From the IMG/VR virus record IMGVR_UViG_3300047510_002509: DNA of 64,000 bases; one strand, given 5' to 3'. A program made the position numbers and the translations under genes. This document shows positions 20,129 to 35,683 of the stretch, one piece after another. The number at the start of each line of letters is the position of its first letter. Positions within the stretch are counted from its first letter, which is position 1. Source of the DNA: a virus. The notes under the pieces are model-generated. The model did no database searches and had not been told where the DNA came from. It saw only the letters and a list, made by a program, of their open reading frames with translations.

Positions 20129-20347
20129 CCCTTAGACACGCCGAGTGAAATCACTTTTTATTTAGACCCCTCACGCTTAACTTCAAAACCAAAAACCCTA
20201 ATAACTCACGCTTATTTTTGACAATTGACCCGACAATTTGTTTATAAAGGGTGTGTTTCTCACACCATTTTTGAAAAAAACTTTTTGACTAGTCGTGCTA
20301 TTTTGTATTCCAAGTAGAAACTAAAAAACCCTACTTGGAAAGATAAC

Positions 20348-20842: not shown

Positions 20843-20932
20843 GGGGTAAAAATTTCAGACAACGACCTCCAGCTTTTCAACGGCAAAAGCGAAGAAGAAC
20901 CAAACGAACCGCTTATCGACACTCCTGTCGAC

Positions 20933-21847
20933 ATGCGGCCCGACCTGTCCGAATATGGTCTTATAGAACATGACCGCGGCATCGTCGAAGATACCTATGA
21001 GAACCGCTCCCTCTTGCGAGCGCACTCTTTCCAGTGGGTACCCGTCTATACAGAGAACGGACATCCAACTGGGTTAATCGAGGCCCGCTCCCTTGAGCAG
21101 ATGAAGGAACGGCGACTGATGTCGCTGTCCAGCAAAAGGGCCCTTCTCACTGAGCCACTTCAGAATAACTCCGACTACTTGACGGGTCTGGATCTGGTTG
21201 TAGATTCCGAGGCCTGCAAACTTGTACCTCCTTGGGTACTCGGCGCGACCCGCGCCTATATAAAAGAGCAGGAAGATGGTGGCCCGCTAACGGCTCGGCG
21301 AGCGCCGAAAGCTCTACCCGCCCGCTGCCGTGCGTATACCTCTGAGGGTATCCGCTGTATGTTGTGGTCATCTGGACGTCTGAAAGATGACGGCTTGTGT
21401 CGCCTACACCTCGGCGCGAACAAGAAGACGGGCGCGGACATTGAACGGGCTCGCAAGAAGCTAATGCAATCCGCACCTTACGCTGTGGACAAACTTGAAG
21501 AACTTATGGAGAACGCTGTTTCTGAGCCAGTCAAGCTCAAGGCGGCAACGGAGATTCTCGACCGTGCTGGTATTCGTGCTGGTATGGAAATTGATATCGG
21601 CGTGGAGCTTAAGGATGCTCGTACCCCCGCTGAGATTATCGCTGAACGGCTTGAGCGTCTGAAAGCTGGAGCGGTTGTGATTCAAGGCGAGCTCGTTGAT
21701 CGAACTTCCACACAAGATGCGGAAGTTGTTCTGGAGCTGGATCAGGATCCCCCTAAAATTTTTACCCCCCAGGCTGAAGCGGCCTCGACATCGGAACAAC
21801 TTGAAACACCAGCCATATCGGCGGAGGAGCTAGAGGAGCTACAGTGA
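20933..21847 (+). CDS. Terminase small subunit-like protein
   Basis: C.A....G.RC......GLC.LH.G zinc motif, then A...L..L.....E.V.LKAA.EILDRAG; frame is open upstream to 20843. Confidence 0.55.
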   Translation: MRPDLSEYGLIEHDRGIVEDTYENRSLLRAHSFQWVPVYTENGHPTGLIEARSLEQMKERRLMSLSSKRALLTEPLQNNSDYLTGLDLVVDSEACKLVPPWVLGATRAYIKEQEDGGPLTARRAPKALPARCRAYTSEGIRCMLWSSGRLKDDGLCRLHLGANKKTGADIERARKKLMQSAPYAVDKLEELMENAVSEPVKLKAATEILDRAGIRAGMEIDIGVELKDARTPAEIIAERLERLKAGAVVIQGELVDRTSTQDAEVVLELDQDPPKIFTPQAEAASTSEQLETPAISAEELEELQ

Positions 21848-22044
21848 CAAACGAACAACTTCTTGAATTGGCGCAGCGGCACGCAGAGCGTCTGGAAAAT
21901 GACATCAAGCTGGCCCGCACAAGAGATGAACATATCCGTGTAACGGCACGGGCTAATGAAGCCGCTGAGATGGTAAACGGCTTGCTGGGAATTAAAGACG
22001 GTGAGCCTGACCGCAATAGTCGCGGCATGGGATTTATAGATTAA
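21844..22044 (+). CDS. Hypothetical protein
   Basis: GAGGAG SD, GTGA overlap. Confidence 0.6.
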   Translation: MTNEQLLELAQRHAERLENDIKLARTRDEHIRVTARANEAAEMVNGLLGIKDGEPDRNSRGMGFID

Positions 22045-22085
22045 TTACTAAACTATGCTAGGTGCTAGCATAGTTAGTAATTAAT
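22040..22085. repeat. Near-perfect 46-bp AT-rich palindrome
   Basis: ATTAATTACTAAACTATGCTAG-GTG-CTAGCATAGTTAGTAATTAAT, 21-bp arms with one bulge. Confidence 0.9.
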
Positions 22086-22107
22086 AGTTTGTCAAGAGGA
22101 GAACGGC

Positions 22108-22185
22108 ATGGCTTACGCAGACGGTGACTGTACGAGAGAGCCTATGCCAAAAGACGGCGTGTCAGATATGGATGACCTGCTATGA
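22108..22185 (+). CDS. 25-aa microprotein
   Basis: GAGGAG SD; MAYADGDCTREPMPKDGVSDMDDLL. Confidence 0.45.
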   Translation: MAYADGDCTREPMPKDGVSDMDDLL

Positions 22186-22530
22186 CAACGGATTGCTTCT
22201 GGTGCGGCGAGGAAGTTAATCGGGACGGCGTGTGCAAAAGCTGCGCAGCAGCCCCATTGCCCGATGCCACCACTTCCGAATAACGGCTCGCCCTACAACG
22301 AGGTATGCACCCACACTTCCTGTGAAAGCGGCGAGCAACGGCAAGAGATGATGCAGACCCCAGTCACCTGACGGGTCGGCATGCGCAAGAATTGAAATCA
22401 TTCTTTAATACTAACGGTATGCACGTAGAACTTAGCCCGTAAGTACAACGGTATGTCGTGTAGTAATTTACACCTAAATTACAACGGTAATACTGCAGGA
22501 AGGTTTAGCTGCAGCTTAAGATCCGATCCC

Positions 22531-22955
22531 AACTTCCAAATAACTTTGCCAAGCTAGCGGCCTGGCGTTTTCGCATGAACGCACGAAAAAAGTGCAGGAA
22601 AATGTAACCGCTCGGTGACAACAGCAGGTGTACGTACACTCAACATCCAAATAACTTTTATGCAGCCGCAGCGGATCAGAGCTGTAGGGGGTAAAAATTT
22701 CTGATCCATCGGGCCCGAAGCTGTTGAACTTCCAAATAACTTTGGGTAACGGCCCGCCGCCAGATCAGATTTTTTTACCCCTGAAGCTGCAGCAGCTCCA
22801 GATCAGATTCAACATCCAAATAACTCAGTGCACAAAAAATCCGCTGTTCAAAAATCCTTGACAAGACTTGACAAGGGGTAGTAGGCTAGGTTTCGCAACG
22901 CGGGCGCCGCGAAACTAAAAAGGGCCCGATCAGATCTAACTTCCAAATAACTTTT
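22531..22955 (+). repeat. Array of five direct repeats AACWTCCAAATAACT(TT)
   Basis: Copies start at 22531, 22642, 22727, 22811 and 22938. Confidence 0.9.
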
Positions 22956-23024
22956 ACCATCTCAAGCTGCAGCACCAGGTGCACGCCACTTGCGCAGATA
23001 AAAAATTTATAATAGAGTTGCGGC

Positions 23025-23321
23025 ATGATAGAGACGCTCATACTGTGGAAGCTTTGGAACATAGAAGACAAAATTGAAGGCGAGCCTTCTGGGGAAGATG
23101 GGTATCTCTGGATGGTGATGCTCGGTTCTTTGCTCTGGCCTGTTGGTATCTACTTTGTTGTACGTGAATACTTTGGCAGGTCTAAGTGGCTCGCTCTTTT
23201 TGCGGCGGCAGGGATTGGGTTGCTTACCATCCTTGTGCTACCCGTGTATTTACTCATCTCTTTGATTCTGGTTATTTACGGATTTTCTTTTCTAGATAAG
23301 CTTGACAAAGATGTCAGGTAG
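23025..23321 (+). CDS. Membrane protein (leaderless)
   Basis: TTGCGC-17-TAGAGT-6-ATG; hydrophobic segments. Confidence 0.7.
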   Translation: MIETLILWKLWNIEDKIEGEPSGEDGYLWMVMLGSLLWPVGIYFVVREYFGRSKWLALFAAAGIGLLTILVLPVYLLISLILVIYGFSFLDKLDKDVR

Positions 23322-23331
23322 GTAATAGAAT
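23302..23331 (+). promoter_or_regulatory. Early-type promoter with TGTCAGG spacer box
   Basis: TTGACA-18-TAGAAT. Confidence 0.8.
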
Positions 23332-23376
23332 AACTAACGGAACAAGAGTTCCATACAAAACGATGAAAGGACACCC

Positions 23377-23679
23377 ATGTCAACGATTACAAAAGTAGCG
23401 GCTTTACCCCAGTGTGATTTCTGCACAGAGAAGGCCCGCTTTGACGGCATGACTATTTACGGCCCGTGGGGCAATATGTGTGAACCACACTTTGATACAT
23501 ACGGCGTCGGACTTGGACTCGGCAAGGGCCAGCGGCTCGTCGAAGAAGGAGAAGATGTTGTGATGTCGTGGGGCGAGCTCGCGGATCTCAATCACGGCAA
23601 GCAGGTAGAACTGTTTGGGTTTTGCACCTGTGAAGACGGCCCGTCTGTGTATGAGGACTGCAACGGAGGGAGGGACTAA
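23377..23679 (+). CDS. Cys-rich hypothetical protein
   Basis: CDFC...D..T..GPW..MC..HF...G.GLG.GKGQ; ACGATGAAAGGA leader. Confidence 0.8.
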   Translation: MSTITKVAALPQCDFCTEKARFDGMTIYGPWGNMCEPHFDTYGVGLGLGKGQRLVEEGEDVVMSWGELADLNHGKQVELFGFCTCEDGPSVYEDCNGGRD

Positions 23680-23813
23680 TGCGCGGATACGTTGAATGGC
23701 TTGAGAGCCAAGAGCGAGACGGCTTGGGAACAAGCCACGAAGATTGGATTGACTCGCACCTAGAGAAAGCGGATGCGGCACGGGATAGGGAGACGGATGA
23801 GACTACCGAATAA
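23679..23813 (+). CDS. 44-aa acidic protein (not in ORF track)
   Basis: GGAGG SD, TAATG coupling. Confidence 0.55.
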   Translation: MRGYVEWLESQERDGLGTSHEDWIDSHLEKADAARDRETDETTE

Positions 23814-24213
23814 GTTGTACCACGCCGCACCTGAGTGCGTGCTCATAAATATTCAAACGGAGGGATTGAAATCTAACTTCGGAGAAATCTATGCGGCAAG
23901 CACTCCAGCGGATGCAATGAACTTTATGTGGTTCAGACTTCTTGACCACCCGCACTACCAGTTCGAGAACGGCAAGGTAGTCGGCATGGAACTAGAACGG
24001 CATGACCGTATCTACGTATTTGAAATTTCAACTAACCGCACAAACAAAGAACGTTGGGAAGTTGGGACGGATCACAGCTCAAAATTTTTTGGCGGCGCGG
24101 AGAGTTGGGTGTACGGAGGTAAAAATATCGAACGGCGTGCCATAAGCGACATCACATACTTCTCACGAGAGATGATTGAAACGGCAAGCAGATCCGCTGC
24201 AGCGTCGAACTAA
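23797..24213 (+). CDS. ADP-ribosyltransferase-fold-like protein
   Basis: LYHAA...I..EGL...IYAA..A...W.Y...I pattern. Confidence 0.45.
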   Translation: MRLPNKLYHAAPECVLINIQTEGLKSNFGEIYAASTPADAMNFMWFRLLDHPHYQFENGKVVGMELERHDRIYVFEISTNRTNKERWEVGTDHSSKFFGGAESWVYGGKNIERRAISDITYFSREMIETASRSAAASN

Positions 24214-24276
24214 CATTCAAATAACTACGGTAAGCCCGTGGAGCTCACATTGAGCCCACGGGTTTATTATTTTGTC

Positions 24277-24468
24277 ATGGGTAAAAAAGAACGGGATGAA
24301 CTCAAGCGTCGCATCAAAGGCGTGCCTGGGAACTACGTGCAGAACCAGAAGGCACAGGTCTTTGAAGACCGCCGCACAAAGCGGCTTCGTACCCGTGGGG
24401 TAAAAAACGATAACGCAATTCAAGAATCGTTGATGTCTGATCGCGATCCGCGTCCAACTTCTGAATAA
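24277..24468 (+). CDS. Small basic protein (leaderless)
   Basis: TATTAT-6-ATG; DRRTKRLRTR motif. Confidence 0.65.
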   Translation: MGKKERDELKRRIKGVPGNYVQNQKAQVFEDRRTKRLRTRGVKNDNAIQESLMSDRDPRPTSE

Positions 24469-24568
24469 CTTGGCAATGCCGCCAGGGCCCTCCAGGTTGA
24501 TGGAACTTCCAAATAACTTTCGCTTTTCAAATCTCGCATTTGCTGACTGAACGACACGCCCAAAAAGT

Positions 24569-24608
24569 TTGACAAAGAACTTGACAAAGTGCAGGAAAAT
24601 AATAGAAT
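24569..24608 (+). promoter_or_regulatory. Early promoter with tandem TTGACA and TGCAGGAA box
   Basis: TTGACA-aagTGCAGGAAaataa-TAGAAT; GACACGCC upstream. Confidence 0.8.
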
Positions 24609-24655
24609 GTATTTTGTCTAGGGTTTCCTAGAAAAGTAGAGTAAGGAAAATAAAA

Positions 24656-24898
24656 ATGGCGACAGTTCAAGACCTAATCAAGATGCTTCAAAAAGAATAC
24701 GACCCAACTCAGGCAATCGTCTTTCAATACTTCACAGCAGAGCACGCTGGACTGGAGGAAGAAGAGTTTGTAGAAGTTGCAGACTATCTAATGGATAACG
24801 ACTCATTCGGAGAAGAAACTTCAGAGATGTTTAGTGGCTGGATTACCGAAGCCCAAGATGTTCTAGCAACAGTAGAAGATGAAGAAGAGGAGGATTAA
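24656..24898 (+). CDS. Acidic hypothetical protein
   Basis: AAGGA SD. Confidence 0.75.
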   Translation: MATVQDLIKMLQKEYDPTQAIVFQYFTAEHAGLEEEEFVEVADYLMDNDSFGEETSEMFSGWITEAQDVLATVEDEEEED

Positions 24899-24900
24899 AA

Positions 24901-25071
24901 ATGACAAATTACAAAATCTATGCGACCCTCACCAGAGAGTATGTGGTTGAGGTAGGCGAAGCACAGAGCGAAGATGACGCTATCAACAAACTTGATGACT
25001 GGATTTCAGATGACTTCGAGGATTATGAAATCACAGCCAAGTGGGACTTTGTTGCTGTTCCCTCTGAATAA
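24901..25071 (+). CDS. 56-aa acidic protein (not in ORF track)
   Basis: GAGGAGG SD; MTNYKIYATLTREYVVEV..AQSEDDA. Confidence 0.7.
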   Translation: MTNYKIYATLTREYVVEVGEAQSEDDAINKLDDWISDDFEDYEITAKWDFVAVPSE

Positions 25072-25148
25072 CACTTGACAAATAGTCATAAATAAGTAAT
25101 AATAGTTTCATCCCGAAAGGGATTTCCAAAACGACGAAAAGAGGAAAA

Positions 25149-25871
25149 ATGCCAAACTGGGTATTCAATACTATGTCTATCACAGGAAAAGAAGAAGACC
25201 TCAAGAAGTTTGTTGAGAAGGCGAAGAAGCCTCACAACACTTATTGGGAAGACTGGAAAACAAAAGAAATCAAAGAAGAAATCGACGACAGAGTTATTTC
25301 TTTTTGGAACTTCATCAAACCAGAAAACGAGCAACTTTATTTTGGGGCGAGCGATTACAAGCCAGAGGGTTATGACCAACTGACTGATGCCGAGAAGATG
25401 GCTCTTTCAATGTCATTCAAATCAGATGGTTGGTATGACTGGAACATCCGCAACTGGGGAACTAAGTGGGATACAAGCGACCCATACCTTGAAGACAACA
25501 GCAAGAAGGGCGAGGTTCAATACCAGTTCTCTACGGCTTGGAGTCCTGCCGAAGGTGCTTACCGAGCAATGGTTGAGCAACACCCAGAACTGACTTTTGA
25601 TTTCCACTGTGAAGAAGAGCAAGGCTGGGGCGTGAAGTATGCTGGCGAGAGTGGCGAGTTGGTTGTAGTTGAAGAGTGGGACATCCCGAACAGCCACGCC
25701 GACTACAAAGAGCGTGATAACGAGGACGGATGTGTCTGCTCTTGGGATGCCGACGACCCCGAGAACTGGTATGACGACTGCCCAAACAAGGCGGAGCAGG
25801 TAGCCAAGTTAGTTGAAGGCACGGAGGAAGTTGTTGCTAAGTTTGAAGACATCAGCGAGATGATTGTCTAA
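25149..25871 (+). CDS. DUF1281/YubB ferredoxin-like domain protein
   Basis: MPNW..N; WYDWNI.NWGTKWD; F.TAWSP. Confidence 0.8.
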   Translation: MPNWVFNTMSITGKEEDLKKFVEKAKKPHNTYWEDWKTKEIKEEIDDRVISFWNFIKPENEQLYFGASDYKPEGYDQLTDAEKMALSMSFKSDGWYDWNIRNWGTKWDTSDPYLEDNSKKGEVQYQFSTAWSPAEGAYRAMVEQHPELTFDFHCEEEQGWGVKYAGESGELVVVEEWDIPNSHADYKERDNEDGCVCSWDADDPENWYDDCPNKAEQVAKLVEGTEEVVAKFEDISEMIV

Positions 25872-25962
25872 AGACGGCACGGCGTGGGGTGGGGTAAAAA
25901 GCCCCACCCTCTGCCGACGGCAGGGTAGGATTGGATTTACAAACGGAAGGGTAAAAAACGGC

Positions 25963-26304
25963 ATGTCTAAAGAAGAAAACATTGTTGATGCGGAGCTCGT
26001 CGCAGGCGAGGATTTCGAGGTAAAAATTATCGATCCGCAGCCTATCGAGCGTAGCTTGCACTACTTCGCGCTTGACGGGAACTACGGTAACGCGAGTGGC
26101 ATGCTCGTGCTAGAGACTACGTACTGGAGAGATGTCGACTGGGAGATTCTGGAGTCAGCATCTGATGACCAGCGCGCCAATGTCGCACGGTTGATTACTG
26201 AGTCATACGAGAAGCCTGAAGACATGACGGTGCTGTATGACAAGTTCGAGCAGTACGGTATTGACCTTGATGATTTTATGCCGCGAGACCAGCTTGACAG
26301 CTAG
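25963..26304 (+). CDS. Acidic hypothetical protein
   Basis: Start reassigned to MSKEEN behind GGAAGGG. Confidence 0.7.
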   Translation: MSKEENIVDAELVAGEDFEVKIIDPQPIERSLHYFALDGNYGNASGMLVLETTYWRDVDWEILESASDDQRANVARLITESYEKPEDMTVLYDKFEQYGIDLDDFMPRDQLDS

Positions 26305-26468
26305 GCCTCACGTAGGGTAAAAATATAGAACTGCCGCGGGTTTCTTCGTCGTTATCCCGTGTGCCACACCTGAGCATGTGTAAAAACTGCTCACTATCCT
26401 TTTCTGGCGAGCGCCGATGTCCCCCAAAGAGGGGACAGGAAATAAATCAAAAAGTTATTGCGTTCTAC

Positions 26469-26497
26469 TTGACACGATTGCAGGAAGATGCAATAAT
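26469..26497 (+). promoter_or_regulatory. Early promoter with TGCAGGAA box
   Basis: TTGACA-17-AATAAT. Confidence 0.75.
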
Positions 26498-26536
26498 TAT
26501 CTCAATGCGAAAGCAGAAACGACGAAAGGAAAAATT

Positions 26537-27025
26537 ATGGGATACACCCACTACTATAAAAGAAGTCTTGATAGCAACGACCCAGAACTTTACGACAAGG
26601 TTCGTAAAGGTTTCACAGAGTTAGTAAAAAATGCCGAACTCAATGGCATTACAGTTGCAGATGCTTTTGGAGAAAAAGCTGGCGCATGGCAAGCAGATGG
26701 CGAGCGCATCGCTTTCAATGGTCTTGGAGAAGAGAGTTGCGAAACTTTTTCTTTCTCTCAGATTGTTCCACCTCAACCTCATTGGCGCGAAAACGAAAAA
26801 ACTTTTTTCGATTTCACAAAGACTAATTATCGTCCATACGATGCTCTAGTCTGCGCGACCCTAATCCTTATCAAAGAGGTTTATGGTTCACAGGTTGAGA
26901 TTTCCTCAGATGGTGGTTGGGACGATTGGGCAGATGGCTATGAACTTTACTTCTCAACCTTTAGAAACCCAATGACACCTGAAAAACTTTTTGCCGAAGA
27001 ACTTGCTTTTTTGGCAGGAAAGTAG
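26537..27025 (+). CDS. Conserved phage protein (MGYTHY family)
   Basis: MGYTHY...I.FNG...ETF...F.KT...PYD..V...L...SSDG; ACGACGAAAGGA leader. Confidence 0.8.
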   Translation: MGYTHYYKRSLDSNDPELYDKVRKGFTELVKNAELNGITVADAFGEKAGAWQADGERIAFNGLGEESCETFSFSQIVPPQPHWRENEKTFFDFTKTNYRPYDALVCATLILIKEVYGSQVEISSDGGWDDWADGYELYFSTFRNPMTPEKLFAEELAFLAGK

Positions 27026-27066
27026 TAGATTAGTTTTCACTAGCACCAACGACGAAAGGACACCCA

Positions 27067-27525
27067 ATGCTAGATAACACGAAAGATGTTCAGGGCGTAG
27101 GCGTTTACGCCGAGTTCCGTAAGCCCGGAGCAACAATGCAAATCATTGTCACACCTGATGGATACACAACTGATGGGAAAGATGTTCCTGCCAATTTGTT
27201 CCGTCGAGTAGTGACACCAGCATCACCTAAGAAACAATGGCGCAACAATGCAATTCCTAATCACGCGATTACAGAATTGAGTGGAGTGGCACTTGGTGAT
27301 GAAAAGAAAGAGGCTTTTGCTTCCCAGCGTTTGTTTTTTGCGATTGACTTGTTTGATGCAATAAACAATGGTGGGTGGGAAATTGTCAAAGACGCTTTTC
27401 TTGTTGAAGTTTCCAAAAAAGATTTGGAAGATGTTCGGACAGGAAAGACACCCAACAAACTTCTCTATCGCATTGGTTTGGTTAGAGAAGCCAACGAGTT
27501 CCCACAAGAACTAATACCAGCGTAA
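27067..27525 (+). CDS. Hypothetical protein
   Basis: ACGACGAAAGGA leader; promoter TTGCTT-17-TAGATT at 27003. Confidence 0.8.
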   Translation: MLDNTKDVQGVGVYAEFRKPGATMQIIVTPDGYTTDGKDVPANLFRRVVTPASPKKQWRNNAIPNHAITELSGVALGDEKKEAFASQRLFFAIDLFDAINNGGWEIVKDAFLVEVSKKDLEDVRTGKTPNKLLYRIGLVREANEFPQELIPA

Positions 27526-27550
27526 AGACGACGAAAGGACATAGGGAAAA

Positions 27551-28594
27551 ATGGAAAACACAAATCTTAGAGAGAGATACAACTCTCTCGGTGGTAGTAA
27601 AACTTTGTGGCAGATGGTTGAAGAAGTTGTTGCTCAGGCAGTATCTGAAACTTCAACAACAAATCTATCTGCACAAGTTGTATCTGCGGGGCGTTATGTT
27701 GCTCGCGCTAGTGGCTCAGATAGAGCGCCACGAAAGTCAAAGCAAGTAATTTCCGTAGATAGCATGGAAGGTGAAGAGTCTTACGAAAGACCAAATGGCG
27801 AAATGTATTTTGGTCGCATGTGGGGCGAACACTCAGATGTGATGGCACTTCGCAAAGCGAGAGAAATGACTATGAAGTCTTTCTCAGGTGAAGGTGGCTC
27901 TCCAATGTTTGCACTTATCTATGGCGCTCCGGGTTGCGGTAAAACTGCGATGGTTGAAGCCGCTTTTGGTGATGATGTTGTCACACTCATTGGAACAGGT
28001 GACACCGAAGTTGCTGACATGGTTGGTGGTTATGTTCAAACTCCAAGTGGTGGTTTCGATTGGGTTGATGGTGGTTTAGTAGATGCCGCCGTCAATGGCA
28101 AAGTTTATTTCATTGACGAAATTGGTTTGATTGACCCAAAGGTTTTGTCACTTGCTTATGGTTTGATGGACGGACGACGCGAGTTAGTTGTCACCGCAAA
28201 TCCAGAGCGTGGCACTATCAAGGCTCACCCAAACTTCTATGTAGTTGCCGCGACTAACCCAAATGCTCCGGGAGTTCGTTTGTCTGAGGCGTTGCTATCT
28301 CGTTTCACTCTTCAAGTTGAAATGACAACAGATTGGGCGCTCGCAAAAAAGCTCGGAGTTCCAACTGCGATAGTTACTGCATCACAGAACCTTGCTAAGA
28401 AGCAAGTGTCTAATGAAGTTTCATGGTCTCCACAATTCCGTGAGTTGCTTGCTTTCCGAGATGTTGCGAAAACTTTTGGCAATACTTTCGCTATCTCGAA
28501 CCTACTTGCCTCTGCCCCCGAAATAGACAGACCTGTCGTTGCCGATGTGCTGACAAGGGCTTATGGGGAAGAGGTAAAGCCAGCGAAAATCTAA
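27551..28594 (+). CDS. MoxR/CbbQ/CobS-type AAA+ ATPase
   Basis: GAPGCGKT, WVDG.L..A, FIDEI, ATNP, LSEALLSRF. Confidence 0.9.
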   Translation: MENTNLRERYNSLGGSKTLWQMVEEVVAQAVSETSTTNLSAQVVSAGRYVARASGSDRAPRKSKQVISVDSMEGEESYERPNGEMYFGRMWGEHSDVMALRKAREMTMKSFSGEGGSPMFALIYGAPGCGKTAMVEAAFGDDVVTLIGTGDTEVADMVGGYVQTPSGGFDWVDGGLVDAAVNGKVYFIDEIGLIDPKVLSLAYGLMDGRRELVVTANPERGTIKAHPNFYVVAATNPNAPGVRLSEALLSRFTLQVEMTTDWALAKKLGVPTAIVTASQNLAKKQVSNEVSWSPQFRELLAFRDVAKTFGNTFAISNLLASAPEIDRPVVADVLTRAYGEEVKPAKI

Positions 28595-28740
28595 CCCCTA
28601 TGTCGGATTTTCGCTGAGGGGTAGGGGGCGCTTCATGGGTGTCGCGCCCCCCACTTCCCTACTTGACACCCAAAGATGTTTTATTGTATTATTTTCATGT
28701 CGAGGACAACGACATAAAGACAAATGGAAGGAACGACGAA

Positions 28741-30510
28741 ATGGCACACATAAAGGTTTCTGCAACTAGAGCAGAGTCCACTCCCCCTGAGTGGTTAGCA
28801 ACAGGCGCACAGATAGGCGAACTTGTAAACACTTGGTCTGGAAGGTCAGACATAATCGCTTATGTAGGTGAAGGTGCAGGTGGTATCGCACCAGCATGTT
28901 TCAACCCACCATTAGCAGAGGTTGAAGTAAATACAAAGGTCGCGTTTGGTGGCGCAACAACTCCAGCGATGGTTGGAGATTTGAGAGAGCGCAAACAACA
29001 GTTTGAGTTTCCAAAAGCGATAGGTGCAATTTTGCACGAAGCCTTTCACGCAAAGTTTTCTATCTTTGACATGGAAAGTGCATACAAGGCGCTCGCAAAA
29101 GATGAATACGAAGCCTTGATACTTTTGGAAGAGGGTCGTATTGAAACTCAGGGTCTATGGCACATGCCTGAGTCTTTGAACTTTCTACGCGCTTGCGCGA
29201 TGGAACTTGTTATCGCAGATGCAAAAGAAATGGAAGCCAGCACTTCAACAACTCAAACTTGCGCCAGCGCAGTTGGATTGGTCTTGGCTCGCGTTGATGC
29301 GGGGATTGTAGATGCTCATGAAGTTGCAAATGTTGAAAAAGAAGTTTCAGCTTTTTTAGGTGAAGAAGTTATTTCAAAGTTGCGAGAGATTTCTAAAAAC
29401 TTTCGCGAAACTATTATTGACTTTCCAACTCAGGCAGAGACTCACCTTTACCCATTAGCAAAAGAGTGGGCAAAGATTATTCGTGATGTGAAAGAAGAGA
29501 AGGGCGAGAAAGATGAGCAGATGGCTCAGGCTTTCGCGCAGATGATGATGGAAGCGATTAGCGAAGCATCAGAGGAAATGGAAGTTTCAACAGGTATGGC
29601 GCTCGCAGACCAGCAGATGTCAGAAGAGATGGCAGAGGAAGCAAAGTCAAAAGCCAACCAAGCCAAAGAAGAAAACGAAAACAAAGATGTATCAGAAAAA
29701 GTTTTCTCAAAATCCACAACAGAAACAGGTGGAAGCACAAACTCGACTCTAGTAGAAGTTCGTAAGCCAACCAGCGCAGAGCGCATCGCGGCAGTTACGA
29801 TTTCTAAGATGTTAGAAAAAGCAAAGTATCGTGACAGAGATGCGATTGAAATTAGTTCAATTATTCCTCCCGGAAGATTGCGCTCTCGCGCTATTGTTCA
29901 AAATGCCGCGATGAAGTCACGCGGGATTGTCCAGCAGACAGAAGCATGGCGTCGCACAGTTCGTAAGCAGACAGATGAAACAAGTCTTACAGTTGGTGTG
30001 ATGGTGGACATTTCAGGTTCAATGGGAAGTGCCATGAAACCAATGGCGACAACTGCGTGGGTAATGTCAGAAGCAGTTCGCAGAGTGCAGGGTCGTTGCG
30101 CGATGGTTTACTACGGCTCAGATGTTTTTCCAACTTTGAAGGCAGGGCAACACCTTGAAGAGGTTCGAGTCTATTCAGCGATGGATAATACTGAAAAGTT
30201 TGACAAAGCCTTTAGAGCCTTAGATGGCGCACTAAATCTGCTCAATGGTAGTGGCGCTCGATTGCTTGTCATTGTGTCCGATGGACAATACACAGGTGAA
30301 GAGCGTGGCAAGGCTCGCCATTGGACAAAGCGTTGCGCCGAGTCAGGTGTTGCGGTTTTGTGGCTTCCGTTCGACTCAGGGCATTACGCCAAATCACTAC
30401 TAGAAAGTAGCGCGGGTGTAGTAATGTCAGGAGTGCTTGACCCTGTATCGGCTTCCGTCGAGATTGGAAAAACGGCAGAGCGAGTCCTAACAAATGTGGG
30501 CATGCGGTAG
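28741..30510 (+). CDS. vWA-domain protein with N-terminal HExxH metallopeptidase-like domain (CobT-like partner)
   Basis: LHEAFH...LEEGRIE; MIDAS VDISGSM; VSDG. Confidence 0.88.
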   Translation: MAHIKVSATRAESTPPEWLATGAQIGELVNTWSGRSDIIAYVGEGAGGIAPACFNPPLAEVEVNTKVAFGGATTPAMVGDLRERKQQFEFPKAIGAILHEAFHAKFSIFDMESAYKALAKDEYEALILLEEGRIETQGLWHMPESLNFLRACAMELVIADAKEMEASTSTTQTCASAVGLVLARVDAGIVDAHEVANVEKEVSAFLGEEVISKLREISKNFRETIIDFPTQAETHLYPLAKEWAKIIRDVKEEKGEKDEQMAQAFAQMMMEAISEASEEMEVSTGMALADQQMSEEMAEEAKSKANQAKEENENKDVSEKVFSKSTTETGGSTNSTLVEVRKPTSAERIAAVTISKMLEKAKYRDRDAIEISSIIPPGRLRSRAIVQNAAMKSRGIVQQTEAWRRTVRKQTDETSLTVGVMVDISGSMGSAMKPMATTAWVMSEAVRRVQGRCAMVYYGSDVFPTLKAGQHLEEVRVYSAMDNTEKFDKAFRALDGALNLLNGSGARLLVIVSDGQYTGEERGKARHWTKRCAESGVAVLWLPFDSGHYAKSLLESSAGVVMSGVLDPVSASVEIGKTAERVLTNVGMR

Positions 30511-30599
30511 CGCGGTAGCGAAACCCATGAACTCAATAGCCCCCGAAACAAGTGCGTCCTTCCAGCGCGTTGTCCAACTTGTGGCAGGGGCAAAAATTG

Positions 30600-30633
30600 G
30601 AAGCCCCGTCTGAAACCAAGAGGCGGGGCTTTC
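30600..30633 (+). terminator. Intrinsic terminator
   Basis: AAGCCCCGTC...GGCGGGGCTTT. Confidence 0.65.
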
Positions 30634-30667
30634 AACCTAAAAACAAAACGACGAAAGGCGGGTAAAA

Positions 30668-31117
30668 ATGGACGGCATACAACCACTTCTTGACCATGTA
30701 GGTGCAGAGGTCGAGTGGGATAGCGGATTACCGATGCACGAAGATAAACGCGATGCGATGTTTTATTGCGATGGCGGTTCGTCACGATTTGTGGCGAGGG
30801 TAAAAATAGCTGAGTTTGCGGTTGATGTTTATTGCGATGGCATCACCGATGTGCGGGACAGAACAAATGGCGAGCGCTACCGATACGGCGGTGACTTGAT
30901 AATGAACAACTACACAACGGACGAGTTGCTAAATCAGGCAACCGAAAGCGGAGACCTTGATGTTGTCAATAACAGTTGGTTCGATTTGTATTGCGAAGGC
31001 GAACACCTTGATACGGTAAGCCACGATGTGTGGGACGCGCTAAGAGATGCAATTACTTTTCTTCAAACGGAAAAGCAAAACGCTCAGGCGATTGAAAACG
31101 TCGGCGTGGATTTCTAA
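30668..31117 (+). CDS. Acidic hypothetical protein
   Basis: ACGACGAAAGG and GGGTAAAA before the ATG. Confidence 0.75.
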   Translation: MDGIQPLLDHVGAEVEWDSGLPMHEDKRDAMFYCDGGSSRFVARVKIAEFAVDVYCDGITDVRDRTNGERYRYGGDLIMNNYTTDELLNQATESGDLDVVNNSWFDLYCEGEHLDTVSHDVWDALRDAITFLQTEKQNAQAIENVGVDF

Positions 31118-31127
31118 GGGGTAAAAA

Positions 31128-31613
31128 ATGTCGAGAGTTATTCAGTTGATGTTGGTGGAAGCAGAAACAGCAGAAGAAGCGGCGAACCATGTGTCAGGCC
31201 TTCTTGATAATGAAACCCCTACACCCCATTGGTCGGACTACCATGACCTTGTTGATGAGTTTGATGGTAAGAGTGCGGTTGCGTATTCAGAAACCATTGG
31301 TCAGATAAAACTCAAAGAGTTCCTCGCTTATCGCGAAGCTGATCTGAAAAGATACTATGACAGGGTAAAAAATTTCGATCTTGCCAAAGCAGTTGAGAAT
31401 TACGATCCGTTCCGAGCAGGGCATAGTTTTACGGAAGACGATTTCCGAACTTATGAACTACGCAAACTTGCAGGTATCTTGGAAGACAGTTGGACTATGG
31501 ACACAGGCGTCTATGATTTGGAAACTTGGTCAGCAAATCTCAAAGCCTTCAGAGAGCGTTGCCAACTCGCCCCTGAGATGCAATTCCTAGTTGCGGTGAG
31601 TTTCCACCACTAG
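31128..31613 (+). CDS. Hypothetical protein
   Basis: ORF behind GGGGTAAAA. Confidence 0.75.
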   Translation: MSRVIQLMLVEAETAEEAANHVSGLLDNETPTPHWSDYHDLVDEFDGKSAVAYSETIGQIKLKEFLAYREADLKRYYDRVKNFDLAKAVENYDPFRAGHSFTEDDFRTYELRKLAGILEDSWTMDTGVYDLETWSANLKAFRERCQLAPEMQFLVAVSFHH

Positions 31614-31690
31614 GCGACACGCCCAGCAAAATGTCTTTGACAAGATGTCAGGAAAATGCAAGAATACTTTCAACGACGAAAGGAGCAGAA

Positions 31691-31798
31691 ATGCCAAAGA
31701 AGCCAGTAATGATTTACATACATTGTTGGAGATGCGGTGCGCCGTTCTCTATCAAGGAAAGTGATTACACCCATCACGCGGGGTGCGGAAAGTGCTAA
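31691..31798 (+). CDS. 35-aa zinc-ribbon microprotein (not in ORF track)
   Basis: Promoter at 31637, ACGACGAAAGGAG leader; CWRCG...CGKC. Confidence 0.65.
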   Translation: MPKKPVMIYIHCWRCGAPFSIKESDYTHHAGCGKC

Positions 31799-31905
31799 TG
31801 ACTATCTGCGCCAGATGCGGTTGGGCTATCCATCAGGATTTTGGGTGGGTAGATGGGTATGGCTATTTAGATTGCGGTGGCAAGCCCCATGTGCCATCAA
31901 AAGTT

Positions 31906-31971
31906 GTTACCAATTCGTTATCAAAAAGTGCTTGACTTGACTTGACAGATGTCAGGAAGGTCGTGTAATGT
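31906..31971 (+). promoter_or_regulatory. Promoter with upstream GTTAC-N6-GTTAT box and TGTCAGGAA spacer box
   Basis: Box 31906-31921; TTGACA at 31942. Confidence 0.75.
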
Positions 31972-32049
31972 TTTATCTATCAGGGAAACCTGAGAACCTC
32001 TCTGAGGGAGTCTCCGAGAGAAATGACATAAAGATAAGGAGTCTTAGTT

Positions 32050-32412
32050 ATGTCTAAGGCATCAGTTACAAAAGCAGTATCAACCCCAGCAGTTGTTGAG
32101 GTTGTAACCACAGCAGAGGTAAAGGCAGACGCCGTTTATCTCGACAAGGCAACACAGATTGTCATTGACGACTTCATCGCGACTCGCGACATGATTACGA
32201 AGTTGGAAAAGACAAAGAAGGAACTAGAGGCAAAAATCAAGGATTATCTTGGTGAGGCTACTAAGGGACTTCTCCCAGACGGAACTCTCCGTATCGAGGC
32301 GTCAAATCGCGAGCGTCGCGGAATTGACACCGAAGCCCTAAAGACAGCCTTCCCAGAGGCATACGAGGCAACACAGACTCTTAGCAAGTATGTTGTCTTG
32401 GTCGCTAAGTAA
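32050..32412 (+). CDS. Coiled-coil phage protein, possibly DNA-binding or recombination-related
   Basis: K..LE..IK..LG; R..ID...LK..FPE.Y. Confidence 0.7.
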   Translation: MSKASVTKAVSTPAVVEVVTTAEVKADAVYLDKATQIVIDDFIATRDMITKLEKTKKELEAKIKDYLGEATKGLLPDGTLRIEASNRERRGIDTEALKTAFPEAYEATQTLSKYVVLVAK

Positions 32413-32503
32413 GACCTAATCCCCCCATTAGGAGCAAGCCCCTCACCCCTCAGGGGTGGGGGGTTTCTTAGTGGAAAAAAATAAAAGACGAAGAGAGGTA
32501 AAA

Positions 32504-32680
32504 ATGACGAAGAGGTATGTTGTTCAGTATTCAGGTTGGGCAGTTGTAGAAGCCAAAGATGAGAAACAGGCTTCCTATGATGTTGGAACTCTACTTGCCG
32601 ATAGTGGCTTACCGAACGATGGTGGCGAAGGTGAGTGGCTAATTGACGAAGTCGAACTTGAAGAAGAGGACGAAGAGTAG
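32504..32680 (+). CDS. Small acidic protein
   Basis: GAGG SD; V.A.DE..A motif. Confidence 0.7.
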   Translation: MTKRYVVQYSGWAVVEAKDEKQASYDVGTLLADSGLPNDGGEGEWLIDEVELEEEDEE

Positions 32681-32689
32681 TAAGAAGAA

Positions 32690-32727
32690 AAAAAAGCCCC
32701 CGCGAAGATGCGGGGGTTTTCTTTTTG
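32690..32727 (+). terminator. Intrinsic terminator
   Basis: CCCCGC-GAAGAT-GCGGGG followed by a T tract. Confidence 0.8.
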
Positions 32728-32843
32728 CTTAGATGCGGGGTAAAAATTCCAGGAGCTGCGGCAGCAACAGCAAATACCTGCACCAGGTGCAAATAACTTT
32801 TCAATGATGCGCCGCTATTTGGTGACATGAACGAACTAGATGC

Positions 32844-32872
32844 TTGACAAAGATGCAGGAAAGTAGTAGATT
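32844..32872 (+). promoter_or_regulatory. Early promoter with TGCAGGAA box
   Basis: TTGACA-17-TAGATT. Confidence 0.8.
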
Positions 32873-32904
32873 AGTTTTTGTCAGAAGGACGAAAGGACAA
32901 ACAA

Positions 32905-33288
32905 ATGCAAACTCTCGACAAGCAAGTAGTAGAACTCGACTCCAGTTGTGTATGCGCCGAAGAAGATGGCACATGGACAGAGTGTTGGGGTTGTTGGGAC
33001 GACTCGAAGGAACTCTATGCAGAAATGCTAGAGGCTTGGAAGCGTGCCATTAGTTTCGATGAAGGCAAACAAGTAGTGCGGATAGATGGCAGGGCTATGA
33101 CTTGGCTACGCCGTGATGGGTATGCCGTAGTTGAGGCAGACAAGGTTTTAGATGCCTTGCAGATAAATGGCGACTTCCGCTTGGTATTCACACTTGAAGA
33201 AACAGAACTGAAGTGCGTGCGGTATTCACATGATGAGCCAGTAGGTGCGTCGTTTACTTTCTCTGCGATGGAACAGCAAGAAGACTAA
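32905..33288 (+). CDS. Hypothetical protein
   Basis: GACGAAAGGA leader; C.C...C.GCW; SHDEP.G. Confidence 0.75.
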   Translation: MQTLDKQVVELDSSCVCAEEDGTWTECWGCWDDSKELYAEMLEAWKRAISFDEGKQVVRIDGRAMTWLRRDGYAVVEADKVLDALQINGDFRLVFTLEETELKCVRYSHDEPVGASFTFSAMEQQED

Positions 33289-33302
33289 GCACAAACTCCA
33301 GA

Positions 33303-33340
33303 AGACTCCCGTATCGCAAGATGCGGGAGTTTTTCTTTTG
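33303..33340 (+). terminator. Intrinsic terminator, paralog of the one at 32690
   Basis: ACTCCCGTATC-GCAA-GATGCGGGAGT followed by a T tract. Confidence 0.85.
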
Positions 33341-33439
33341 TTGAAGATGCAGCGGATCGCGATCAGTTTTGAGCTAGGGGTAAAAATTTTGTCCTGGCGG
33401 GCCAGGCGCGGATCGTAGATGCAAATAACTTTTCGATCA

Positions 33440-33482
33440 GACCCTGCGGACCTTGTGGTCCCTGCGGACCTTGTGGTCCCTG
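33440..33482. repeat. Tandem repeat with 18-bp unit (9-bp sub-period)
   Basis: (CCCTGCGGACCTTGTGGT) twice plus a partial copy. Confidence 0.85.
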
Positions 33483-33547
33483 TTGCGCTCGCCGACACGC
33501 CAGAAAAATAAACTTGACAAAGTTGCAGGAAGGTGAAATGATTCTTT

Positions 33548-33625
33548 TACACACGGAGTCCAGCAGTGGTCACCTGAACGACTTGAACTCTAGAGGGTCG
33601 GAAACAAGATGTTGCTCCGTGTGTA
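33548..33625 (+). ncRNA. Candidate structured RNA or 5' leader
   Basis: 11-bp closing stem TACACACGGAG/CTCCGTGTGTA starting just after the promoter at 33514-33542. Confidence 0.45.
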
Positions 33626-33646
33626 TCTAAAATGACGAAAGGACAA

Positions 33647-33892
33647 ATGATGGCACAAATGGAAATTACAGAAAAAGAAGCAGAACTATCTGCGATGGGT
33701 ATGGCTATGTTGCTTACCTTTATGCAAGAACAAATCAACAAGCACAAGAACCACAAAGATTATTCAATGGACAAGTTGTTTGCGTTGATGGAGATGTATG
33801 CAACGATTGGTGATTTATGGGTGCGGTATCAAATGATTACTGGACTTACAAGAGAAGAAATTGCAGAGTATCTGCAAGAGCAGGAAGGATAA
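33647..33892 (+). CDS. Hypothetical protein
   Basis: GACGAAAGGA leader. Confidence 0.7.
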   Translation: MMAQMEITEKEAELSAMGMAMLLTFMQEQINKHKNHKDYSMDKLFALMEMYATIGDLWVRYQMITGLTREEIAEYLQEQEG

Positions 33893-33894
33893 AA

Positions 33895-34026
33895 ATGGAC
33901 GACATACTAAGAACTGTTTTGCAAGAGGCGAACCAAATTTGTATTGAGTGCGGAAGAAAGTTTGACTTGTTTGATGAGGAACAAGCAGCAGAGTGGCACG
34001 CTGGACACGATTGTGAGGTGGAGTAA
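33895..34026 (+). CDS. Small zinc-binding protein
   Basis: CIECG..F.L..E..A.EW..GHDCE. Confidence 0.7.
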   Translation: MDDILRTVLQEANQICIECGRKFDLFDEEQAAEWHAGHDCEVE

Positions 34027-34028
34027 AA

Positions 34029-34268
34029 ATGGCAGAGCAGGAGAAGCGCGAGTATCACTTCGTAGTTCGCTACGACGCGGACACAGATGAGTTTGACATG
34101 GACTACGACACTTTGATGGCAAAGTTTCATGACAGTCCTATCTATGACCCTGAAACAGGAGAGTGGATTAGATTGAAGGACACAGACTGGGAGAACGAGG
34201 GAACTAATTACAACAACGCGGGTGACGCAATTTGGGACGCGGTAAAAAATCTGAAGTTAAGGAGTTGA
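34029..34268 (+). CDS. Acidic hypothetical protein
   Basis: Operon ORF with SD. Confidence 0.7.
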   Translation: MAEQEKREYHFVVRYDADTDEFDMDYDTLMAKFHDSPIYDPETGEWIRLKDTDWENEGTNYNNAGDAIWDAVKNLKLRS

Positions 34269-34269
34269 G

Positions 34270-34488
34270 ATGGAAGAAGCGATTGACGAGATAAATCTTT
34301 CTCGAACAGTTTTGTTTGTTGGTGACTACTTCTCAATGATGACAACAGTTGTCCTCGCCGAAGAAAAGCGCGAGAAAGATGAAGATGACGATGAGTTTGC
34401 CATTAGGTTGGCAAAGCAGTTTATGCAGGAGTATTACGGCTGGGACTTAGAAGCAGTATCAAATGAAATAGGGATTGTTGAGGAGTAG
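34270..34488 (+). CDS. Acidic hypothetical protein
   Basis: AGGAG SD. Confidence 0.7.
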   Translation: MEEAIDEINLSRTVLFVGDYFSMMTTVVLAEEKREKDEDDDEFAIRLAKQFMQEYYGWDLEAVSNEIGIVEE

Positions 34489-34688
34489 CGGCGCTCGCAG
34501 CAGTAAATAGAGGGTAAAAATCTGGCTTATTCTAGAACTCCAGCGTCGCGTAGTTGGAGCCTAGCTCGCACGCCGCTGATGAGGCGGGATTGCTACCCCC
34601 TGCCGCACCCTCCTTTGCACCCCCTAGCAGGGGAGGAGTGTCGAGTCCTTCCACATCATCTGCCTGTATGAGGTTTAGTATTGATGGT

Positions 34689-34934
34689 ATGGCTGAGATT
34701 GAAATCCTTGACTCCTCTGTTCACCCAAACCCTGAAGGGGAGAAGTTTGTTGCGGCGTTGATTGATGACGCTAATGATGGTCGAGTCAAGTTGGTAATTA
34801 TGTTTGAGGAAGAAGGCTACACGGCTGTTCTTGACTTGGACTCACTAATTGAAGAAGAAGACATCTCTGCAAAAAAGCACACACATCTAGGCGGCAGATA
34901 CGACGCACTCCTGCGTGACCTGCTCTGGGAGTAA
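34689..34934 (+). CDS. Acidic hypothetical protein
   Basis: Start reassigned to MAEIE. Confidence 0.6.
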   Translation: MAEIEILDSSVHPNPEGEKFVAALIDDANDGRVKLVIMFEEEGYTAVLDLDSLIEEEDISAKKHTHLGGRYDALLRDLLWE

Positions 34935-34937
34935 AAA

Positions 34938-35519: not shown

Positions 35520-35683
35520 CTTTCGTTCCTGCTCTTCTAAACAACTTTTCTAAGTTCCTGCTGGTGCGTCCCCCATTTGTGATGTTTATCAAATTGTTAC
35601 ATTTTCCTGCATTTTGGACTTGACTTTCCTGCATTTCTGAGTATTGTTATCTATGTAAGGAAAAAACGACGAAAGGAAAGACA

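Follow-up and report, generated by a model that had tools for sequence, protein, structure and literature searches.

A conserved array of directly repeated boxes between a small-terminase-like gene and the early genes of an uncultured actinobacteriophage, tentatively read as an early-transcription control platform

Results

Gene Neighborhood of the Untranslated Stretch

The DNA analyzed here is a stretch of 64,000 nucleotides from IMG/VR virus record IMGVR_UViG_3300047510_002509 (hereafter the window). Its source is a large tailed phage, uncultured, of freshwater Actinobacteria, and looks lytic; the portal protein shares 74% identity with that of the metagenome-assembled Actinomycetia phage DSL-LC01 and 57%–62% with those of 190-kb Microbacterium phages. 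The gene at 20933–21847 is small-terminase-like (TerS-like), a call supported by the match of a profile of 16 of its homologues to PDB 7JOQ (E = 0.0015), a small terminase from the PaP3 study (PMC7672466), by a weak match to PHROG 2538, and by a homologue in phage Cece that is annotated as TerS. The TerS-like protein retains 58%–88% identity and an invariant Cys/His cluster across lineages whose repeated boxes, described below, are unrelated. A neighboring ORF at 21844–22044 encodes a conserved protein of 66 aa.

Two mini-ORFs (22108–22185 and 22182–22283) lie between the TerS-like gene cluster and the non-coding stretch, so that the untranslated region runs from 22284 to 23024, and the array region within it holds no + strand ORF of at least 60 aa. 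To the 3′ side of the array, small genes served by strong sigma-70-type promoters form a block that reaches to ∼39 kb. The array is thereby placed at the junction between a small-terminase-like/lysis module and a rightward block of small early genes of the host-takeover type. The neighboring ORFs contain no recognizable DNA-binding domain and match no Rep, helicase, primase, or initiator family. A giant ORF of 3137 aa adjoins the portal gene; a polymerase module was sought in it and rejected, as exonuclease and Nudix domains were the only ones found and the last 1358 residues were blank in the Atlas search. A search of five relatives with PF00940 (T7-type RNA polymerase) returned nothing, as did its positive control, and is hence uninformative.

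A Sharply Bounded 16-bp Box Is Repeated on One Strand

The array consists of five copies of a 16-bp box with the consensus AAC(W)TCCAAATAACTT, all on the + strand, the first of which starts 684 bp past the stop codon of the TerS-like gene, with start-to-start spacings of 111, 85, 84, and 127 bp (Table 1). A weight matrix derived from three relatives together with the window shows an abrupt fall in information content at both edges of the box, which are therefore sharp, and finds eight strong sites (>20 bits) in the whole window, every one of them on the + strand and within 22531–24519. At two mismatches or fewer, the window contains 13 matches against 0.43 expected, a number reached in 0 of 100 shuffles. 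The box is G-free and asymmetric (AAC(W)T-CCAAAT-AACTT) and sits between GC-rich segments; it can be read as two AACTT pentamers 11 bp apart, or one helical turn, and a degenerate unit in a close relative (L123) follows a like logic, with GAACAACTT occurring twice at an 11-nt period. Four of the eight strong boxes have GATC at most 17 nt upstream, and three of the eight are at ORF ends or stop codons. Box 6 (24212) has a strong terminator hairpin on its 3′ side (z = −8), and a GATC doublet (24439/24445) lies upstream of box 7.

Table 1. Features of the array and of the first early genes (window coordinates)
Feature	Coordinates	Strand	Sequence and score	Context
Box 1	22531–22546	+	AACTTCCAAATAACTT; 28 bits	GATC doublet 22520–22528 ahead
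Box 2	22642–22657	+	AACATCCAAATAACTT; 27 bits	
GGGGTAAAAATTTCTGATC element, forward	22688–22706	+		In the 85-bp unit
Box 3	22727–22742	+	Weight-matrix site	Between two inverted GGGGTAAAAA arms
Inverted GGGGTAAAAA(W)TCTGATC element	22763–22781	−	GGGGTAAAAA at 22772–22781	In the 84-bp unit
Box 4	22811–22826	+	AACATCCAAATAACTC; 25 bits	CCAGATCAGATT ahead
Putative promoter P1	22858–22887	+	Doubled TTGACA (22858, 22868); −10 TAGGCT (22882–22887)	Read from the sequence
Dyad	22889–22916		GGTTTCGC-N12-GCGAAACT	At the predicted P1 start site
Box 5	22938–22953	+	AACTTCCAAATAACTT; 28 bits	Between P1 and P2, after GATC doublet 22928–22936; last box of the array
−10 element of putative promoter P2	23008–23013	+	TATAAT	11 nt before the ATG of ORF 23025–23321
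Box 6	24212–24227	+	AACATTCAAATAACTA	Starts inside the stop codon of ORF 23773–24213
Box 7	24456–24471	+	AACTTCTGAATAACTT	Its TAA is the stop codon of a small ORF ending at 24468
Box 8	24504–24519	+	Exact copy	∼50 bp upstream of a doubled-TTGACA promoter, 24569–24609

GATC, Palindromes, and Promoters within the Array

GATC occurs 60 times in the window against ∼217 expected, a ∼3.6-fold depletion that is shared by CCGG and GGCC, and yet the 491-bp array region alone has 8 against 0.46 expected. Most GATC sites of the region are in GATCNGATC doublets directly upstream of boxes, also as CAGATCAGAT, and the other GATC clusters of the window accompany composites of GGTAAAAA and a box. Six-base palindromes are also concentrated, with 13 in the 491 bp compared to a mean of 4.3 for windows of equal length (∼3-fold, top 0.3%), and A-tracts are present. 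In all close relatives, the GGGGTAAAAATTTCTGATC element is followed by GGGCCCGAAGCTGT and then by a box. The two GGGGTAAAAA arms, of 19 nt each, are 89% complementary; a cruciform formed by them around box 3 was considered and rejected, as the order of the arms and their distance differ in relatives. Likewise, an inverted pair that brackets the array (22508–22522 and 22959–22973) was rejected as terminal inverted repeats because it is not kept in relatives.

The array encloses the predicted promoter P1 and ends at the predicted promoter P2, and a further possible promoter is located upstream, at 22467–22510. P1 is present in seven distinct relatives as TTGACA-N17-TAGGAT. The dyad at its predicted start site shows covariation among seven sequences, with 10 pairs, 3 of which have compensatory double changes, and 0 broken cells. 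The dyad is a candidate operator, or else a 5′ stem-loop; because the predicted start site falls inside its left arm, an operator appears preferable to an RNA hairpin. The P2 context, cttgcgcagataaaaaat.tataat, is kept in two of the relatives (L123 and L127). No −35/−10 pair is found in the box itself, and the distance from box to promoter varies from 20 to 50 bp and more, so that a fixed activator geometry is unlikely.

Much of this layout had been noticed in a preliminary description of the same DNA. The five same-strand repeats and their spacings are present as it gave them, far above chance, and its placing of the array ∼0.7 kb after a TerS-like gene agrees with the measured distance and with the support now found for that gene. 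Its view of the region as non-coding fits with the missing + strand ORFs and with the shuffling of units among relatives shown below, and the richness in palindromes and GATC is borne out by the counts. The central motif that it saw once in each 84- to 85-bp unit corresponds to GGGGTAAAAA, forward at 22688 and inverted at 22772–22781. Its idea that the array may be the master copy of an island element holds in part, in that composites of GGTAAAAA, GATC, and a box recur in the early block.

Close Relatives Keep the Boxes and Shuffle the Units

Using the TerS-like protein, we collected 35 loci from IMG/VR and 80 from metagenomes. Every close relative whose downstream sequence is long enough (L123/L168, L125, L127/L172, L166/L167, L169, and L170; seven distinct sequences, 74%–89% protein identity) has four to five boxes, in a span of 0.4–0.5 kb that lies 0.6–1.1 kb after the TerS-like gene, with spacings between boxes of 58–192 bp. 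The repeats are thus kept where the preliminary description had allowed that relatives might lack them. Where the contigs of relatives reach far enough, a further two to three boxes are found at 1.9–2.75 kb, at the boundaries of the first early genes. Orthologous boxes are retained although their flanks diverge. A 110.9-kb sister contig, which covers the rest of the genome and stops at window-equivalent 22503, contains zero boxes. The stretch is a real, conserved, cis-acting control platform, given that relatives keep the array at the same place.

The order of units differs between the window and L123, L125, and L127, and blocks of homology with relatives start at 22727 or end at 22742–22745, i.e., at box 3, which makes the boxes recombination junctions. 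L125 is without ORF 23025–23321, and an endolysin gene occupies the place of the array in relatives. These comparisons show the boxes to be selected, position-specific, confined to one part of the genome, and used as junctions for homologous recombination.

Relatives also carry one perfect inverted box after an HslV-like gene, antisense to its neighbors, and the window has a degenerate forward copy of the box at that site. The inverted, antisense copy counts against the transcription-control reading discussed below.

In IMG/VR, a pattern of two boxes retrieved only known relatives. Its single match among 185k bacterial genomes, a Neobacillus soli tandem repeat in which one chance 16-mer is present twice, was set aside. 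A scan of IMG/VR with a single box gave mostly single chance matches, and a DNA search of a phage collection with the array region gave no match.

Distant Lineages Have Different Boxes at the Same Place

More distant lineages (55%–63% identity) have different boxes at the same place, clustered from ∼−0.25 to +5 kb around the TerS-like gene. One of them (L137) has ten copies of GGGAAATTATAATTT in 1.4 kb of non-coding DNA, another (L135) has two related box types, and a third (L142) has six exact copies of AACTTTTAACGAA against 0.04 expected; in L142 and its kin, AACTTTTAACGAA usually has GATC ahead. Four of the six exact L142 boxes are inside coding sequence, in two different frames, and the boxes are dispersed over 2.4 kb; in this lineage, most boxes lie not near promoters but within genes, among them the TerS-like and endolysin genes. 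Boxes inside coding sequence fit a roadblock and not promoter control, and they fit genome-end or packaging functions equally well. The L149 contig has no boxes in its other 98 kb. In every lineage, a box or a weak box is found within the 3′ end of the TerS-like gene or shortly past it.

The lineages have sigma-70-type promoters in common but not the boxes, an observation that indicates a phage-specific reader and argues against host RNA polymerase or another host factor, as long as the lineages do not infect very different hosts. As the reader, the TerS-like protein is weakly disfavored, since it is conserved between lineages with unrelated boxes. For the site of the TerS-like protein, a better candidate than the boxes is offered by the ACGG(C/T) repeats that occur across lineages just upstream of the array.

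Record Starts and Contig Ends Cluster near the TerS-like Gene

In 11 cultured relatives, the TerS-like homologue is gene 1, 50–143 bp from the start of the record. A record start set by a terminase-first naming convention is unlikely, given that 10 of the 11 records call the homologue no more than hypothetical. Among the uncultured genomes, several metagenome contigs from the 57%–63% lineages start within 40–100 nt of one conserved non-coding feature, located 240–320 bp upstream of the TerS-like gene. The ends of five contigs of 99–125 kb fall 128–2127 bp after this gene; three contig ends are within 30 nt of a box, and for one contig (L126) the end is at window-equivalent 22503. The two clusters of contig ends are located where conserved sequence gives way to variable or repeated sequence, and assembly breaks therefore explain them as well as physical ends would.

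A long terminal repeat containing the TerS-like gene was considered as the cause of the clustered ends. It is not supported, because the records of Big4 and Racecar, the two that were checked, share no terminal repeat between their ends and because the contig starts are spread over 40–100 nt where conserved sequence borders on variable sequence, as expected of assembly breaks. The balance of this evidence places the physical end, if there is a defined one, upstream of the TerS-like gene rather than at the array.

Discussion

Comparison with Known Repeat Systems

In several respects the boxes resemble the stoperators of cluster A phages, the 13-bp sites of the L5 gp71 repressor, which number ∼24–36 and are distributed over the whole genome of temperate mycobacteriophages with an identified repressor (PMC9283540, PMC6550527). 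Both are short, asymmetric elements of actinobacteriophages, present in many copies and lineage-specific in sequence, and in most cases they sit at gene boundaries, frequently overlapping a stop codon, and face the same way as transcription; indeed, 8 of 8 strong boxes are on the + strand, 3 of them at ORF ends or stops. Unlike stoperators, however, the strong 16-bp boxes (∼8) are concentrated in ∼2 kb, where five make up an array free of genes, with none in 110 kb of the genome, and no cognate repressor of the stoperator type was recognized among the neighboring ORFs. The PeSL cassettes of T4-type phages, in which an early promoter is fused to a stem-loop (PMC2839356, PMC4122927), are likewise regulatory sequences that recur between the small early genes of a hyperplastic region, where they act as junctions for shuffling and deletion. 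Unlike PeSL, the box is neither promoter nor stem-loop, the promoters of the array are separate from it, and its copy number is constant.

The iss of phage T5, which is part of a 10-kb terminal repeat and contains 8 DnaA boxes (bioRxiv 10.1101/866236), is similar to the array in being a large untranslated stretch, rich in repeats, inverted repeats, and palindromes, near the first-expressed genes. The T5 iss-like proximity of the array to a genome end derives solely from the records of cultured relatives. In contrast to iss, the array is without DnaA boxes, and the Big4 and Racecar records are without a terminal repeat. The array thus fails to show one defining feature each of stoperators, PeSL, and the T5 iss.

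The pac site of phage P1 is 162 bp long, lies inside pacA, and has seven TGATCA/G hexamers that are read in a Dam-dependent manner. The array shares with P1 pac, P1 oriR, and E. coli oriC a cluster of GATC together with repeated protein-binding sites, which in the array are putative, and, as in this comparison set, its repeats are close to a packaging gene. Unlike these systems, the array has irregular spacing (58–192 bp) and no P1-type TGATCA hexamer despite its 8 GATC, and neither Dam-type (PF02086) nor N6/N4 (PF01555) methylases were found in the genomes of five near-complete relatives, in searches with positive controls. On these grounds, the P1-like pac controlled by methylation that the preliminary description had proposed is not upheld. 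In lambda cosB, the R sites for gpNu1 lie between the cut site and terS and take up ∼0.2 kb. Both cosB and the array have several 16-bp sites near terS (putative binding sites in the array); unlike cosB, the array is 0.7 kb downstream of the TerS-like gene and has more copies among the early genes.

A Possible Platform for Control of Early Transcription

The box is best read as a candidate duplex-DNA binding site for a phage-encoded reader protein. Our preferred explanation, which we hold tentatively and with less than even confidence, is that the stretch acts at the level of DNA as a multi-site platform, through which a lineage-specific phage protein controls or insulates early transcription. 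We commit to early transcription because the array encloses P1 and P2 and because further boxes are at early-gene boundaries. A sequence-specific DNA-binding protein, differing between lineages, would recognize the box, and its molecules would probably be arranged head to tail along a single face of the helix. By occupying the co-oriented sites cooperatively, they could then set or shut off early transcription, and the bound array may insulate the early block from transcription leaving the upstream module, presumably acting, like the mycobacteriophage stoperators, as a roadblock or regulator that depends on orientation. In such a platform, the array boxes, the GATC doublets, and the GGGGTAAAAA(W)TCTGATC elements would surround P1, with its dyad as operator, and P2; the three further boxes would mark the ends of the first early genes, and recombination at boxes would shuffle the units and the neighboring small genes.

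The neighboring ORFs yield no candidate for the reader protein, an observation that speaks against transcription control. No role within the model accounts for the GATC doublets. The linkage to the TerS-like gene in every lineage goes beyond what transcription control alone would involve.

Packaging and Genome-End Functions

The boxes could instead serve packaging or the genome ends, a reading that we consider rather unlikely but that comes not far behind the preferred one. They would then be sites for the terminase small subunit or for another end-acting protein, in an extended pac- or cosB-like signal or in a T5 iss-like site at which DNA entry is paused or organized, a few kb from the physical left end. 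Such a function is consistent with the distribution of the boxes, which are co-oriented with the TerS-like gene, lie from ∼−0.25 to ∼+5 kb around it, and do not occur in the other 98–110 kb, as well as with the box or weak box that every lineage has at the 3′ end of this gene and with the tolerance of boxes inside coding sequence. It is also consistent with the ends of the five 99- to 125-kb contigs past the gene, with the three ends close to a box, and with the starts of the cultured records, which place the array ∼2 kb from an end. Furthermore, the T5 iss is also large, untranslated, and full of repeats, inverted repeats, and palindromes (bioRxiv 10.1101/866236).

The layout of the array argues against this reading, as does the TerS-like protein, which is well conserved next to unrelated boxes and for which the ACGG(C/T) repeats offer a better candidate site. 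The sites of known small terminases (lambda cosB, SPP1, P22, and P1 pac) lie inside terS or between it and the cut, extend over no more than 0.3 kb, and have no copies at early-gene boundaries or 13 kb away, and the array is unlike them in this. In addition, repeats and strain-level shuffling would explain the contig breaks equally well, the DnaA boxes of the T5 iss have no equivalent here, and a Dam-type methylase is absent from the five relatives.

A more radical form of this idea, which we regard as unlikely, is that the boxes form a new kind of genome-end organizer. A polar, lineage-specific array over 0.5–5 kb beside the terminase gene would be read by a phage protein for DNA entry, end protection, or packaging, possibly gated by host GATC methylation, and would be the actinophage counterpart of the T5 iss.

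RNA-Level, Origin, and Other Explanations

It is distinctly unlikely that the box acts in RNA, as an unstructured protein-binding or processing site in early transcripts, be it for nut/boxA-like antitermination, for an RNase, or for a translational repressor, in a long leader and in 3′ UTRs. Such a role would agree with the orientation of 8 of 8 strong boxes along transcription, three of them at gene ends and one in the P1 leader, with the G-free box being set between GC-rich segments, and with the possible promoter at 22467–22510, which could transcribe boxes 1–4; the L142-type box would also share a UUUAAC core with rrn boxA. However, the hairpins adjoining boxes are not consistent (mean z −0.8 downstream and −0.4 upstream), and a module of box plus hairpin, as in a terminator or a nut-like site, holds for the 24212 site only. 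RNA folding of the array is weak, with z = −1.8 on the + strand and −2.6 on the − strand. An Rfam search of 21.5–23.8 kb (E up to 1) gave no match, a tRNA scan gave nothing, and no antisense partner of the box was found among early leaders. We favor a DNA-level over an RNA-level element because there is no consistent hairpin, the weak fold is better on the minus strand, no antisense partner exists among those leaders, and one orthologous site is inverted with respect to relatives. The spacing of the AACTT pentamers by 11 bp is a feature of the helical turn of DNA, and host RNA factors do not explain lineage-specific boxes.

As a replication origin, for which we see a small chance, the array would present the boxes as iterons for a phage initiator, with promoters that activate or prime as in the origins of T7 and T4. 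The multiple co-oriented 16-bp repeats, the cluster of GATC as in oriC and P1 oriR, the promoters and A-tracts inside the array, and the second cluster of boxes 1.3 kb away, which is reminiscent of P1 incC/incA, suit an origin. Iteron origins, though, have tandem direct repeats of 17–22 bp with a regular, helically phased spacing (∼22 bp), and the spacing of the boxes is irregular and far from such phasing. DnaA boxes are not enriched and none is in the array, and no recognizable initiator, helicase, or primase gene adjoins it. Within the window, cumulative GC skew changes course at ∼17 and ∼39 kb, together with the direction of transcription, and shows no turn at 22.5 kb. Iteron origins also have an AT-rich unwinding element, and the GC content of 22–23 kb is 0.49. 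The L142 boxes, moreover, are spread over 2.4 kb of coding DNA. The iteron origin named in the preliminary description is not supported by the spacing, the DnaA boxes, the adjoining genes, or the skew within the window. Its broader notion of a nucleoprotein platform is supported by the sharp box edges, the conserved place, the copy number, and the confinement of the boxes to a few kb beside the TerS-like gene.

We give even less credence to the view that the boxes are scars, that is, emptied intergenic cassettes stacked by recombination at short shared sequences and without collective function. It draws on the variable order of units in the window, L123, L125, and L127, on the breaks of homology at boxes, on the presence or absence of a neighboring ORF, on the endolysin gene found there in relatives, and on the precedent of PeSL in T4-type phages (PMC2839356, PMC4122927). 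Scars would be hard to reconcile with four to five copies in the same 0.4- to 0.5-kb span in seven distinct relatives, with a conservation of the box far above that of its surroundings, and with the analogous multi-copy arrays of other boxes in other lineages, even inside genes; PeSL, moreover, differs from a box that is itself neither promoter nor stem-loop. Finally, immediate-early promoters for an unrecognized phage RNA polymerase or sigma factor (N4-like) in the first-entering part of the genome would account for lineage-specific boxes that are co-oriented with early genes in one region and possible inside coding sequence, and a 3137-aa ORF does adjoin the portal gene, but they are highly improbable, as this ORF shows exonuclease and Nudix domains only, Sigma70_r2 matches nothing in five relatives, strong sigma-70-type promoters already serve the early genes, and no conserved start-site mark is found downstream of the box.

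Implications

Large lytic phages of freshwater Actinobacteria are abundant and uncultured. In one such lineage, the array is a selected, lineage-specific multi-site element at the hinge between packaging/lysis genes and host-takeover genes. The concentration of the otherwise avoided GATC in its elements suggests a link between restriction avoidance and regulation. The array explains why assemblies break there in this phage group and how the small early genes are shuffled, and in metagenomic contigs it can mark where the early region begins. It also provides a concrete DNA bait for its reader protein.

Orientation and Reading Frame of the Box

At the intergenic site lying 3′ of the HslV-like peptidase gene, the window carries a degenerate forward copy of the 16-bp repeated box (35532), whereas the same site in two relatives carries a perfect inverted copy (G002 at 45553 and G007 at 39964), indicating that a box at an orthologous position can switch its orientation. 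Read in one frame, the box spells T-S-K-stop, and it provides the stop codon of the ORF ending at 24468. The second of two overlapping mini-ORFs downstream of the TerS-like (small-terminase-like) gene encodes a 33-aa zinc-ribbon-like peptide with a CxxC...CxxC arrangement, and its terminus, T-S-E-stop, falls within a degenerate box.

Features outside the box array
Feature	Window coordinates	Description
Promoter/terminator region	20129-20347	AT-rich
46-bp palindrome	22040-22085	AT-rich; 21-bp arms, 3-nt loop
Two overlapping mini-ORFs	22108-22185 and 22182-22283	Preceded by a good Shine-Dalgarno sequence
Three direct repeats, (A)ACAACGGTAT	22404-22494	~36-nt spacing
3137-aa ORF	45740-55153	Adjoins the portal gene

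Distribution of Short Motifs

On the + strand, GGTAAAAA occurs 24 times within 18 kb (20845-38535) versus four times in the other 46 kb. Several of these copies amount to no more than a Shine-Dalgarno sequence with its spacer and the ATG (GGGGTAAAAAATG), while others fall within ORFs in differing frames; one copy is located 85-90 bp upstream of the start of the TerS-like gene in every lineage examined. Across the whole window GATC, CCGG, and GGCC are strongly avoided (60 seen against ~217 expected, 8 against 82-167, and 52 against 122-167, respectively). The leftover GATC sites cluster in composites of GGTAAAAA and box at 22.5, 24.4, 31.3, 33.4, 35.3, 38.6, and 39.2 kb.

Right Ends of Cultured Relatives and a Giant ORF

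Within the last 650 bp of Microbacterium phage Big4 (ON637770.1), the non-coding right end contains five G-run repeats, AGAGGGGGGGTC-like, as well as CATGATCATG palindromes; both abut the record end, which adjoins the TerS-like gene 1. In the last 400 bp of Arthrobacter phage Racecar (MN234206.2), the non-coding right end includes TGTTTCACGTGAAACA, a perfect parS-like palindrome. A ParB-like nuclease-domain gene, gene 5 of the L252 sequence, is located 2 kb from the left end, and the half-sites of the window's P1 dyad, a candidate operator (GTTTCGC/GCGAAAC), resemble parS halves.

Apart from a DnaQ-like exonuclease at roughly residues 1168-1390 and, at residues 1620-1772, a Nudix domain that matches PDB 6UUF (E=1e-9), no part of the 3137-aa ORF is recognisable. 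Its product may be a giant protein that is ejected or forms part of the virion.

The TerS-like Module

Homology to all close relatives starts at 20131-20193, inside the AT-rich promoter/terminator region, and the DNA to the left of this region varies among relatives. The region is a mosaic boundary heading the holin-like/TerS-like module. Downstream of the TerS-like gene is a 66-aa ORF, directly 3′ of which lies the 46-bp palindrome, with ~89% identity in close relatives; possible roles for this palindrome are bidirectional terminator, cruciform, and dimeric-protein site. Repeats of the ACGG(C/T) type recur downstream of the TerS-like gene in all lineages, whereas the boxes do not, and these repeats are candidates for the site of the conserved TerS-like protein.
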